Source: Methanocaldococcus jannaschii DSM 2661 | Lineage (GTDB): Archaea > AGJL01 > Methanococci > Methanococcales > Methanocaldococcaceae | Assembly: GCF_000091665.1 (NCBI RefSeq) | Contig: NC_000909.1 | Location: 1,116,629-1,148,628 of the forward strand | Length of the DNA stretch: 32,000 nt | Direction: 5' to 3' | Shown: one piece after another, positions 835 through 14,962 of the stretch | Layout of the letters: the number at the start of each line of letters is the position of its first letter | Position numbering within the stretch: position 1 is the first letter of the stretch | The notes under the pieces: model-generated | What the model was told of the DNA's origin: nothing | The model's input: only the letters and a program-made list of their open reading frames with translations | The model's database searches: none | Position numbers and translations under genes: made by a program

Positions 835-1839
835 ATGAGATTTGAGGAATTCAAATACGTTAGGAAAGGAGTTATTGTTGGATTGTTAATAATGTTGTTA
901 TATATAATTTGGCCGTTTATTGATGTCTTAGCTTATTCATGTGCCTTTGCATATATGGCTTTGCCAGTCTATAACATATTAAGAAAAAAATTTAATAAAA
1001 CCATATCAGCAGGTTTGGCAATTAGCATATATATCCTTCCAATTATGACAATTACAATTTACGCCCTACTAACGTTCATGGAAATCATACTATCTTTCAA
1101 TACTAAATCTATAGAGCCATATATTAATGAAATCCTCTCCATATATAATTCTTTTATGTTAGAAAGAATTATTAATAATGAACAAATAATTGCAAAGTAT
1201 ATTGACGAATTTATAAAATATTTGGTTAGTCAGTTTTCTGGAAAGATTATTGATGTTGGATATTTAATAGTTAAAGTAATTATGGTTTTGTTCTTAACAT
1301 TCTACTTTCTAAGAGATGGGGATAAAGCCAAAAACCTGATAATTTCATTTGTGCCTGATGAATATAAAGAAAAGATGAGAATTTATTTAAGTTATCTTCA
1401 TGACTCCTACAAAAATTTATTTATAAGCTGTGTTTCACTTTCTATAATTATAACTATCCTATCCTACATCGGATATCTTATACTTGGGGTTCCTTATGCA
1501 GAGTTATTTGCGATAATAACCGGAATATTTGCTTTATTACCAATATTGGGAGGATGGATGGTGTATATCTCAATAGCTATATATTTCTTTTTAATACATG
1601 ACTATACTAAGGCAGTTTTTATGTTTATTTATGGGGAACTCTTCCTTTCCATAGCTCCAGATTTTGTTATAAGACCTTATTTAGTTAAAAAAGAAGTAGA
1701 TATTCACCCAGTCCTTGTAGTTATTGCGTTTTTAATGGCGCCCCTTTCATTAGGACTCAGTGGATTTGCTATTGGTCCATTAGTCGTTGGGGCTTTAAAC
1801 GCCTTTTATTTGGCAAAATATAGGGATAAAAAAATCTAA
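835..1839 (+). CDS. AI-2E family transporter / PerM-like permease (UPF0118), multi-pass membrane protein
   Basis: 334-aa ORF with about 7-8 hydrophobic segments. The C-terminal region (GIFALLPILGGWMVYISIAIYFF ... DFVIRPYLV) resembles the conserved AI-2E/UPF0118 core. Confidence 0.7.
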   Translation: MRFEEFKYVRKGVIVGLLIMLLYIIWPFIDVLAYSCAFAYMALPVYNILRKKFNKTISAGLAISIYILPIMTITIYALLTFMEIILSFNTKSIEPYINEILSIYNSFMLERIINNEQIIAKYIDEFIKYLVSQFSGKIIDVGYLIVKVIMVLFLTFYFLRDGDKAKNLIISFVPDEYKEKMRIYLSYLHDSYKNLFISCVSLSIIITILSYIGYLILGVPYAELFAIITGIFALLPILGGWMVYISIAIYFFLIHDYTKAVFMFIYGELFLSIAPDFVIRPYLVKKEVDIHPVLVVIAFLMAPLSLGLSGFAIGPLVVGALNAFYLAKYRDKKI

Positions 1840-1849
1840 GAGGATAATT

Positions 1850-1891
1850 ATGAAAAAAGTAAGAGTAGTAACTGCCGGAACATTCGACATC
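1850..1891 (+). pseudogene. Displaced 5' fragment of a ribL homologue (14 codons, [14 protein letters not shown]), then interrupted
   Basis: The first 14 codons match the start of the intact ribL at 2208 ([13 protein letters not shown]). After codon 14 the frame enters a GC-rich hairpin and stops at TGA 1916-1918. It has its own SD-like GAGGA upstream. Confidence 0.7.
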
Positions 1892-2041
1892 CATAGGGGG
1901 AAACCCCTATTGGGATGAACCTTTTAGTAAAAGCTTCACCAAAACCTAACATCTCCTCGCTTACGCTCGGAGGTGTAAATTAGTAAGATTTGGGGAGTAT
2001 CCCAATAGAGGGGCGAAGCCCCTCTATGGTGTGGATACCCC
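1888..2041. repeat. GC-rich structured insert bounded by two related hairpins (MITE-like element or small structured RNA)
   Basis: Hairpin 1 (1888-1917): CATCC-ATAGGGG-GAAA-CCCCTAT-(TG)-GGATG. Hairpin 2 (1993-2041): GGG(A)GTATCC..AATAGAGGGGC-GAA-GCCCCTCTAT..GGATACCCC. Both share the core ATAG(A)GGGG/CCCC(TC)TAT. An imperfect third hairpin, CCTCG..CGGAGG, lies at about 1955-1973. The island is strongly GC-enriched relative to its flanks. Confidence 0.5.
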
Positions 2042-2054
2042 ATGTCCATTAGCT

Positions 2055-2143
2055 AATTATCAAAGTTAAATCATCTATTAAGGAATATTTAGAAGCCCAA
2101 AAGGCTTCTATAAGTGCCATATTAATTTAAAACTTTGATAATT
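2055..2143. repeat. Long-range inverted repeat (13-nt perfect arms) enclosing a GC hairpin, upstream of ribL
   Basis: AATTATCAAAGTT (2055-2067) is the exact reverse complement of AACTTTGATAATT (2131-2143). The central hairpin is AGAAGCC-CAAAA-GGCTTCT (2091-2109). A further hairpin, TTGCCCTT-TTC-AAGGGCAA, lies at 2153-2171. Confidence 0.6.
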
Positions 2144-2207
2144 GGTTATAAGTTGCCCTTTTCAAGGGCAATTAATGTCCTATTAAAAAGAAATGGTGTG
2201 AATAGTT

Positions 2208-2657
2208 ATGAAAAAGAGGGTAGTTACCGCTGGAACGTTTGATATTCTTCACCCTGGACATTATGAGATATTAAAATTTGCTAAAAGTTTAGGAGATGAG
2301 CTAATAGTTATTGTTGCGAGGGATGAAACTGTAAAGAAATTAAAAGGTAGAAAACCTATAATTCCGGAAGAACAAAGGAGGGAGATGGTTGAAGCATTAA
2401 AGCCTGTTGATAAAGCAATATTGGGAAGTTTGAAAAATAAATTAGAGCCAATATTAGAGTTAAAACCAGATATTATTGTTCTTGGTCCTGACCAGACAAC
2501 TTTTGATGAGGAAACACTAAAAAAAGAACTTGCTAAATATAATTTATATCCAGAGATTGTTAGATTTAGAGGTTATAAAAAATGTCCATTTCACAGCTCT
2601 TTTGATATTGTAAAAGAGATAATTAGGAGATTCTGCAATAAAGAGATTAAAATCTAA
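2208..2657 (+). CDS. ribL: FAD synthetase RibL (archaeal FMN adenylyltransferase, cytidylyltransferase-fold)
   Basis: 149-aa ORF. The N-terminus [14 protein letters not shown] is the nucleotidyltransferase (H/T)xGH motif. Length and sequence fit the archaeal RibL family as I remember it. SD-like GGTGTGA lies upstream. Confidence 0.85.
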
Positions 2658-2913: not shown

Positions 2914-4049
2914 ATGAAAAAGATTTATATGTTGGTGGCTTTGCTAATCTCATCTTTGGTACTATTTGCTGGATGTGTTCAAAATGAAACTTCAGAAGTT
3001 CCAACTTTGACAGTTGCATATTTGCCAACAGACCATCATGCTTCCCTATTTGTAGCCTGTGACAATCCAGATTTATTTAAAGATAAATATGGAATATGCT
3101 TGAAAGCAGTTAAAGATAAAGAGGAATATGAGTTGTATAAAGGAAATAAAAAAATAGCTAATGTGAAAGTTGTTAAAGTTACTGAAGGTGGAGCAAGTAT
3201 AATGAACCTAATGACTCAGGGACAGGTTGATGTTGCTTTATTAGGATACCCACCAGTAATATTCTACATAGATAAGGGAACAAAGGCTAAGGTCATAATG
3301 AATTTGCATACCGAAGTTCTGCAGTTGTTGTTAGAAAGGATATTCCAGTAAATAACTGGAAAGAGTTTGTTAATTGGATAAAAGAACAACATAAAGAAGG
3401 AAAGCAGGTTAAAATAGGACATCCACTACCAACATCAATTCAATACGTTATGATAGAAGATGCTTTAAAAGCAGAAGGGATAACCTATACTGAAGACCCT
3501 AATAACAAGAGTGCTATGGTTTTGTTAGTAAATTGTAAGGGACAGGGGACAATGCCTCAAATGTTAGCTCAAAAGCAGTTGGATGCAGTTATTGCATGGG
3601 AGCCAATGCCTGAAATTATAAAAAATAAGGGTATTGGAAAAGTTATTGCCCACAGTGAAGATTTACCAAGCGCTACAGGAGGAACTTGGGCAAACCATCC
3701 ATGCTGTTGTTTAGCAGCGTCTGAAAATGCCTTAAAAAACAAAAGAGAAGCAGTTATAACATTTGCAAAACTCTTAAAGGATGCGACAGATGAAATTAAC
3801 AAAAACAGAGATTTAGCTGTTAAAGCATCTGTTAGATGGCTTGGAACAAACGAAAATGTTGAGAAAGATTCAATTGAGCATATAAAGTTTGATTATAGAT
3901 TAGAACCAGTAATACCTAAAGTCATAAAATTCGTTGAAGCAATGAAGCTCCAAGGATTAATAAATGGAAAGCTAAAAGATGCATCATCAGAAGAAGTCAA
4001 GGACATAATCTTTGACCTGCAAACTTACAATGAGATAATAAATAACTAA
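2914..4049 (+). pseudogene. Lipoprotein-type periplasmic solute-binding protein (NMT1/THI5-like, nitrate/sulfonate/bicarbonate SBP family) split by a 1-nt frameshift
   Basis: ORF 2914-3351 has a signal peptide plus lipobox (LVLFAGC) and an SBP-like N-domain. The next frame is open from 3291 and continues without a gap as ..[51 protein letters not shown] into ORF 3450-4049. One missing base near 3313-3317 (accgaag^ttctgca) would restore a single ~378-aa protein. Confidence 0.7.
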
Positions 4050-14730: not shown

Positions 14731-14831
14731 AAAATAATTAAAAAGCACAAGCTCTACATTCTAATAAAAATCTCAAAAATATAACGGCGTAGGTTATGAG
14801 CTCAACATTGGGGGCAGACAAAACCAGATGA

Positions 14832-14864
14832 GGCACCACTCGAAGGCAATGCCAAAGTGGTGCT
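14832..14864 (+). promoter_or_regulatory. Archaeal SECIS element for hdrA (3' UTR)
   Basis: GCACCAC/GUGGUGC lower helix (14833-14839 / 14857-14863). Internal loop with GAA (14842-14844) opposite A-rich AAA. Upper helix GGC/GCC of 3 bp with apical loop AAU. Possible outer pairing GAUGAGG (14827-14833) with CCCUCAUC (14882-14889). Confidence 0.8.
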
Positions 14865-14962
14865 GATGGAGAGGGTAAGTGCCCTCATCCAAATTAAATT
14901 ATAAATTTAATTCTCATGTTGTTATCGAGTTTATAAAATTAATAATATATAGGGGGATTAGT

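Follow-up and report, generated by a model that had tools for sequence, protein, structure and literature searches.

What is the GC-rich, hairpin-bearing DNA that separates a permease gene from ribL in Methanocaldococcus jannaschii: a structured RNA, or a mobile element that has broken into the start of a gene? Both readings were offered in the original prediction, which placed a single hairpin-bounded insert of about 150 bp at 1888-2041 of a 32,000-nt stretch of the chromosome. That whole stretch is referred to here as the window, and positions given without a contig name are counted from its first nucleotide. The evidence favours a form of the second reading. In our estimate, with a probability of roughly 0.8, the block is modular hairpin DNA of a selfish kind that entered the start of ribL and duplicated 36 bp of its target, that recombination later elaborated and spread, and that is transcribed only passively.

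Structure of the permease-ribL spacer

Re-reading of the sequence finds the hairpins where they had been placed. The first, CCATAGGGGGAAACCCCTATTGG, occupies 1891-1913, and the second, CCAATAGAGGGGCGAAGCCCCTCTATGG, lies at 2002-2029 with outer arms GGGGAGTATC/GGATACCCC; between them, at about 1955-1975, is the imperfect CCTCG...CGGAGG hairpin. A fourth hairpin, GAACCTTTTAGTAAAAGCTTC at 1917-1937, had not been listed. Folding is far better than that of shuffled sequences whichever strand is taken: the + strand has a predicted energy of -64.4 kcal/mol and a z score of -5.36, the - strand has -69.8 kcal/mol and -6.44, and neither energy was equalled by any of 200 dinucleotide shuffles. The GC-rich island is also real: GC content is 0.41-0.50 over 1851-2050, compared with 0.25 in 2051-2150 and 0.31 for the chromosome.

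Other parts of the description need amendment. The two bracketing hairpins were said to be related, and they do belong to the same repeat family, but the copies are in opposite orientation (H and H' in Table 1). The insert does carry hairpins over the proposed 150 bp, but repeat DNA continues beyond 2041 as far as 2180, and the 154-bp segment is not a single element but part of a modular composite of about 290 bp (1891-2180), whose small hairpin-forming modules are scattered over Methanocaldococcus genomes. On the left, the copy of the ribL start at 1850 reads into hairpin H as a relic ORF of 22 codons.

Table 1. Features of the permease-ribL region, in window positions
Feature	Position	Strand	Evidence
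AI-2E family transporter gene (permease, left neighbour)	835-1839	+	Pfam PF01594, E 4.7e-74; ORF
Spare left copy of the ribL 5' end (left target-duplication copy)	1850-1890	+	The uninterrupted G001 junction matches both flanks over one and the same 36 nt
Head hairpin H (CCATAG, variable stem-loop, CTATTGG)	1891-1913		52 exact-flank chromosomal copies
Module B (hairpin 1917-1937)	1914-1944		nhmmer, 31 matches at ~24 loci, both strands; blastn
Module C, imperfect hairpin with arms CACCTCC / GGAGGTG	1945-1983		21 genomic copies
H', H family inverted (core 2002-2029), outer GTATC/GATAC arms	1992-2033		H_D profile, 53 matches
Linker GATACC..GTCCATTAG of the H-F cassette	2034-2052		Aligns to the G008 cassette with the extra modules taken out
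Element E, separate 93-bp MITE inside the cassette, with terminal inverted repeats of 15 bp	2053-2145		~19 loci, both-strand matches
Hairpin F (2153-2171) and TTAATGTCC, end of the H-F cassette	2150-2180		Aligns to the G008 cassette, with a compensated G/C stem swap
AT-rich tail with GGTG (ribosome-binding site) and AT of the new ATG	2181-2207	+	Homology with the tail in G008
Live ribL (FAD synthetase type cytidylyltransferase)	2208-2657	+	Pfam PF01467, E 6.1e-27
Right duplication copy, inside live ribL	2208-2245	+	Alignment to the left copy

Repeat modules across the genome

When the M. jannaschii genome (1,664,970 + 58,407 + 16,550 bp, 31% GC) was searched with the spacer, the region 1889-2185 split into modules that are repeated independently of one another. 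The segment is clearly multi-copy, and is neither single copy nor without homologues. All 90 repeat clusters lie on the chromosome; the two small replicons have none. Hairpin H has about 52-65 copies in the genome, 52 of them with the exact foot CCATAG...CTATTGG, in most cases with GATAC after it. The inner stems of these 52 are of about a dozen kinds, and the stems covary across the genomic copies: pairing of the inner stem is complete in 43 of the 52, whereas controls with arms shuffled between copies gave 13 on average and 21 at most.

The larger H-B-C-H' unit recurs as a copy with 98% identity at C1:460306-460446 and as another with 88% identity at C1:101674-101844, and in the closer of these the stretch of identity has exactly the limits of the unit, to the base. 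Many copies are half elements with a single H, or consist of B only. Copies of element E, when aligned, are TA-flanked with 15-bp terminal inverted repeats, and E occupies the same internal position of the cassette at C1:726k, at C1:143k and in the window. A second E-type copy (TAGTCAATCATCAAA... arms) is present further along the window at about 2796-2897, ending just before GAGGTGG, which is the ribosome-binding site for the solute-binding-protein gene at 2914; it explains a 'perfect-armed palindrome' that had been noted there. The solute-binding-protein gene itself is seemingly split, with ORFs at 2914-3351 and 3450-4049 in different frames.

Among other genomes, eight from the sister family gave no match to the repeat modules, only the ribL part of the query being matched, and G002, G003 and G009 gave just one or two matches. 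The full series H-B-C-H'-linker-E-F is found at a non-orthologous locus on contig C82 of G008, and at G001:881k H-B-C-H' is followed by a different second hairpin module. At two further G008 loci (C14:4300-4780 and C39:900-1350), H-B-C-H'-linker-F has CRISPR repeat-like sequences on either side, an arrangement that looks like a duplication of the repeat around the element.

History of the ribL insertion

The permease and ribL genes are neighbours in 14 congeners, and in 9 of these the orthologous site is empty, the junction appearing as one contiguous match (G001, G003, G007, G010, G011, G012, G021, G022 and G023). ribL starts about 12-17 nt past the transporter stop in the five of these junctions that were read (G001, G007, G010, G011 and G012). 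A split match with a 36-nt overlap is seen in M. jannaschii and G008 only.

The G008 insert is a 95-bp H-F cassette that follows ...TTTGATAT (ribL codon 14) and is flanked by an exact 36-bp direct repeat of ribL codons 3-14. It is made up of H, a linker TATACC..GTCCATTAAG, F, TTAATGTCC and a 28-nt tail ending GGTGTGAATATTAT. If 1914-2033 and 2053-2149 are taken out of the M. jannaschii spacer, what remains aligns end to end with this insert; the F stems of the two differ by a G/C swap that is fully compensated. The M. jannaschii tail aligns to the G008 tail with a score of 14, attained by 0.08% of 1196 control gene upstreams, and has no significant resemblance to the sequence upstream of the target itself. 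Given the homologous tail and the identical insertion site, M. jannaschii and G008 share one insertion allele. Because they share it, the 'ribL fragment' at 1850-1890 is the left target-duplication copy. A flanking target duplication, 36 nt of the ribL start, is present. Together with the multi-copy modules and the nine empty sites in congeners, it supports the proposal that a non-autonomous mobile element has interrupted the start of a gene.

The M. jannaschii allele itself is the G008-type insertion with B-C-H' and the TA-flanked MITE E added. Since the added modules recur at other loci, the simplest account of the composite is an upgrade of the cassette by recombination with a family member, and we infer such an upgrade in preference to three separate insertions into the same bases. 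For the start of the live gene (2208), both the GGTG and the AT of the ATG were supplied by the insert.

Two further ideas about the boundaries of the insertion were set aside. A ribL duplication reaching upstream to the permease stop can be drawn as a local alignment, but its score falls within the control distribution, leaving such an extension unproven. An origin of the 27-nt tail in the flank of a donor locus (3' transduction) was sought by a pattern search of 17 genomes, which gave background matches only. The permease-ribL spacer of another congener, G006 (L015), has two different H hairpins and B-type hairpins and lacks the ribL duplication; it is an independent colonisation of the same junction.

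The distribution of the occupied allele does not follow the phylogeny in a simple way. The transporter-gene tree pairs M. jannaschii with G001 as sisters (97/97), and likewise G008 with G007 (100/99), but both of these partners, G001 and G007, are empty at ribL. The presence of the occupied allele in two non-sister lineages means that a single vertical insertion would need repeated precise losses or lateral transfer. In addition, the two duplication copies are identical in G008 whereas those of M. jannaschii differ at 7 of 29 sites, a contrast that is hard to square with one simple history. A ribL gene tree gave no resolution on whether a patch had been transferred.

Long flanking duplications as a hallmark of the family

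The duplication at ribL is one of many. The 160 nt on each side of the 90 chromosomal clusters were aligned with each other, with 600 random positions as the control. Flanking direct repeats scoring at least 40 were found at 46 of the 90 clusters and at 12 of the 600 controls, and those scoring at least 60 at 21 clusters and no control. The converse count gives the same association: among about 32 exact direct-repeat pairs of at least 18 bp lying 40-700 bp apart, CRISPR arrays aside, about 24 enclose a cassette. The duplications are 18-38 bp long where exact, with imperfect flank alignments extending to about 100 columns, and some of the junctions have extra nucleotides. The exact repeats cover gene starts with ribosome-binding sites, gene ends and, judged by sequence, apparent tRNA 3' ends.

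The insert at C1:460k lies in the Eha hydrogenase operon between the gene for a NuoH-like subunit and that for a small membrane protein. Its exact repeat of 29 bp is prolonged by 17 bases that have diverged but can be matched to the uninterrupted target in relatives, which implies a duplication of about 46 bp. The site is empty in G001, G007, G008 and G011, whereas G010 has an H-H' palindrome at this very position, one that lacks B-C.

One way to account for these duplications is to regard them as ordinary target-site duplications, made by a transposase with a very long and variable stagger that moves classical MITEs in trans; recombination would then have no special role. The defined ends of the unit, with identity between the window and C1:460k stopping at the first and last bases of H...H', are well suited to this idea, as are the terminal inverted repeats formed by H and H' and the combination of empty sites with exact flanking repeats of 18-38 bp. 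We nevertheless consider it doubtful, though possible. No partner element was found in this genome, and the many single-H half elements and B-only copies are not readily accommodated. The sequences of the duplicated copies, described next, add to the difficulty.

Spare copies and patchy occupancy

At ribL, the left and right copies have 7 differences in 29 codon-aligned nucleotides, all of them at third positions, and both encode RVVTAGTFD. The spare and live copies at C1:602k have 10 differences in 59 nt and no amino-acid changes. Over eight loci, 65 nucleotide differences between spare and live copies are accompanied by 11 amino-acid differences, a comparison with some bias since the frame was picked for best fit.

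Occupancy is patchy in a similar way at other loci. G001, the closest relative by both the flanks of the ribL locus and the transporter tree, is precisely empty at five of five loci (ribL, C1:601960-602140, C1:343696-343931, C1:129427-129628 and C1:460257-460494), whereas the occupied alleles at those loci are common to M. jannaschii and more distant congeners of the G007/G008 or G010/G011 clades. With G001 used as a proxy for the native allele at four loci, spare copies match at 23 informative sites and live copies at 25, in mosaic patterns. A test for a single crossover (a 'mirror chimera') with the same proxy gave LLL.L and then RR at ribL, from only six sites, and mixed or opposite patterns at the three other loci.

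If the target had been duplicated in situ and the spare copy had then decayed neutrally, neither the nearly synonymous-only divergence nor the patchy occupancy would be predicted. Recombination of either copy with working empty-site alleles does predict that pattern, as does lateral spread of the allele via the duplicated target. The transposase with a long stagger is in the same difficulty as simple decay, since its spare copies should not diverge nearly only at synonymous positions (no amino-acid change accompanies the 7 differences at ribL or the 10 at C1:602k), nor should the same occupied alleles be found in non-sister lineages.

Proposed mechanism of insertion and spread

For the reading that we prefer, selfish hairpin DNA elaborated and spread by recombination, the following course of events may be envisaged. 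The cassette would have entered by insertion at the DNA level, at widely staggered breaks made by some enzyme, and the length of the duplication would have allowed an insertion inside the start of an essential gene to be survived. Homologous recombination or gene conversion among copies and lineages could then have upgraded the cassette to the composite, and the same processes may account both for the spread of the occupied allele and for the lasting resemblance of the spare copy to a working one. At the RNA level, the block would merely be carried in a permease-ribL transcript or a ribL leader. A point against this account is that classical MITEs do not make long, variable duplications. A search of this genome for a transposase or autonomous partner with H ends found none; H...H' pairs 1-3 kb apart enclose host genes. 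The candidates between such pairs, namely a predicted ABC-type ATPase (from its motifs), a nucleotidyltransferase-like protein (by eye) and an uncharacterised 486-aa protein, include no recognisable transposase and were rejected.

The cassettes might, more speculatively, be an undescribed kind of prokaryotic mobile DNA, in which the unit of duplicate, element and duplicate acts as a site-faithful allele; we would advance this only tentatively. Each insertion would duplicate tens of target bases (36 bp here; 18-38 bp exact elsewhere, and longer if imperfect copies are counted). The unit could pop out by recombination between the duplicates and could re-enter the empty sites of other chromosome copies or lineages by homologous recombination, of the ends-in or Campbell type, through its captured copy of the target. 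If true, such a cycle would explain the sharing of an occupied site by non-sisters, the precisely empty sisters, and the synonymous-only differences of the spare copies.

It could also be supposed that there was no transposition at all, and that replication stalled at hairpins, with template switching or slipped re-priming copying modules from elsewhere and duplicating the adjacent target. The variable length of the duplications, the shuffled mosaics of modules and the extra nucleotides at some junctions are what such errors would leave behind. However, homology between recent copies ends exactly at the element ends and not in donor flanks, a search of 17 genomes found no locus that could have donated the ribL tail, and the same site with the same duplication boundaries recurs in two lineages, which together make this explanation improbable.

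Transcription and the case for a functional RNA

The original prediction saw no signature of a known RNA, and the searches agree. Rfam 15 has no match inside 1888-2041, or elsewhere in the block, at either the gathering score or E<=10, and ARAGORN found no tRNA in the block. A C/D-box reading of the GATGA motifs was dropped, as these have neither a match to an Rfam snoRNA family nor box D context. Hgc-type GC islands, reportedly described by Klein and colleagues in 2002 and with families that are presumably included in Rfam, were also considered, but no Rfam family matched the block. In the window as a whole, the sole Rfam match at gathering score is flpD RNA (RF01737) at 14824-14869 on the + strand (59.1 bits, E 3.3e-12).

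The spacer is represented in four RNA-seq libraries and is contiguous with both genes, in contigs that cover 1500-1932 and 2000-2620 (2727 in one run) and break at repeat k-mers. Depth on the ribL side is 2-4 times that on the permease side in three of the four runs, and an internal promoter before ribL is possible. Over module C (1940-1993), the k-mer depth in the four runs is 70-1300 times that of the neighbouring genes, a depth that is pooled over about 21 copies and comes from unstranded contigs. Adapter remnants in the reads abut 1951 and 1983. Short, stable hairpin-containing RNA fragments accumulate from some module C copy or copies, which is no proof that this locus encodes an sRNA. 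The arms of module C are anti-SD-like (CACCTCC) and SD-like (GGAGGTG).

A functional structured RNA, whether an sRNA gene or a cis-acting leader or insulator controlling ribL after its separation from the permease, and perhaps exapted from a repeat, would be in keeping with this transcription, with the strong predicted folds on both strands, with the covarying inner stems of H and with the compensated F-stem swap between M. jannaschii and G008, but we think it very unlikely, since the block matches no Rfam family, its modules are found on either strand at dozens of unrelated loci (gene ends, tRNA ends and CRISPR repeats among them), it is missing from the orthologous site in most congeners (9 of the 14 with adjacent genes) and shared as an orthologous insertion by G008 only, in a shorter form, its modules have no match in the eight sister-family genomes, covariation among paralogous copies fits a requirement for a DNA hairpin equally well, and the RNA depth is pooled over all copies, including the 98% copy inside the Eha operon, which would be expected to be well expressed.

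Comparison with known elements

As probable selfish DNA that is passively transcribed, the block has consequences for annotation: the GC-rich island upstream of ribL is to be treated as repeat DNA rather than as an sRNA candidate, and the 22-codon ORF at 1850 as a relic of the ribL start. The locus also provides a clean natural experiment, with empty site, simple insertion and composite in one series, and an example of how an insertion in the first codons of an essential gene is survived, ribL having come through because the insertion duplicated its start and brought a new ribosome-binding site.

Two classes of element are brought together in the composite. Element E, with its 15-bp terminal inverted repeats, TA flanks and about 19 loci, fits a classical MITE of the IS630/Tc1 type with a TA target. 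The H-B-C-H' unit resembles classical MITEs in its small size (<600 bp), its lack of coding sequence, its many copies and the inverted repeats at its ends. It differs from them in its flanks, where 18-38 bp exact repeats take the place of the short, fixed target-site duplication (2-10 bp) of which the TA at E is an instance, and also in the existence of half elements with one H and in that no autonomous element with the same ends was found in this genome. Long, variable direct repeats of tens to hundreds of base pairs are reportedly made by bacterial insertion sequences of the IS1634/IS1549 type. These are, however, autonomous bacterial elements with a DDE transposase, and no such gene is associated with the cassettes here.

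The hairpins themselves are reminiscent of bacterial REP sequences and their BIME and REPIN arrangements. Both are 20-40 nt long and imperfectly palindromic, with a bulged base and a foot that is conserved, both are intergenic and multi-copy, and the inverted doublets of REPINs, like H...H', form longer hairpins. REP, BIME and REPIN sequences are mobilised by RAYT proteins, which are Y1 transposases of the IS200/IS605 type; we know of no RAYT-like partner for these archaeal repeats. The elements described here differ from REPs also in being archaeal and modular, and in that REPs have no target duplication, whereas the hairpin cassettes have flanking duplications.

The closest likeness is with MJRE1-3, the palindromic repetitive elements of M. 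jannaschii (Suyama, Lathe & Bork 2005, FEBS Lett 579:5281), as these are cited in PMC2229807 and PMC2996958. They come from the same type of organism and are small, palindromic, extragenic repeats with of the order of a hundred copies, some of which enter coding regions without destroying them. The present modules are likewise short, palindromic, hairpin-forming repeats in many dispersed and mostly extragenic copies, and they are very probably the published MJRE repeats, an assignment based on organism, size, palindromy and copy number only. The locus is in that sense an ordinary copy of a repeat family that is already known. The abstract of the 2005 report is said to mention neither long target duplications nor allele-like spare copies. 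A genetic system for M. jannaschii has reportedly been published, and family-level questions could be tested in this organism. For specialists in mobile DNA, what these palindromic repeats offer beyond their likeness to MJRE, MITE and REP elements is the question of how such long duplications arise and what keeps the spare copies allele-like.
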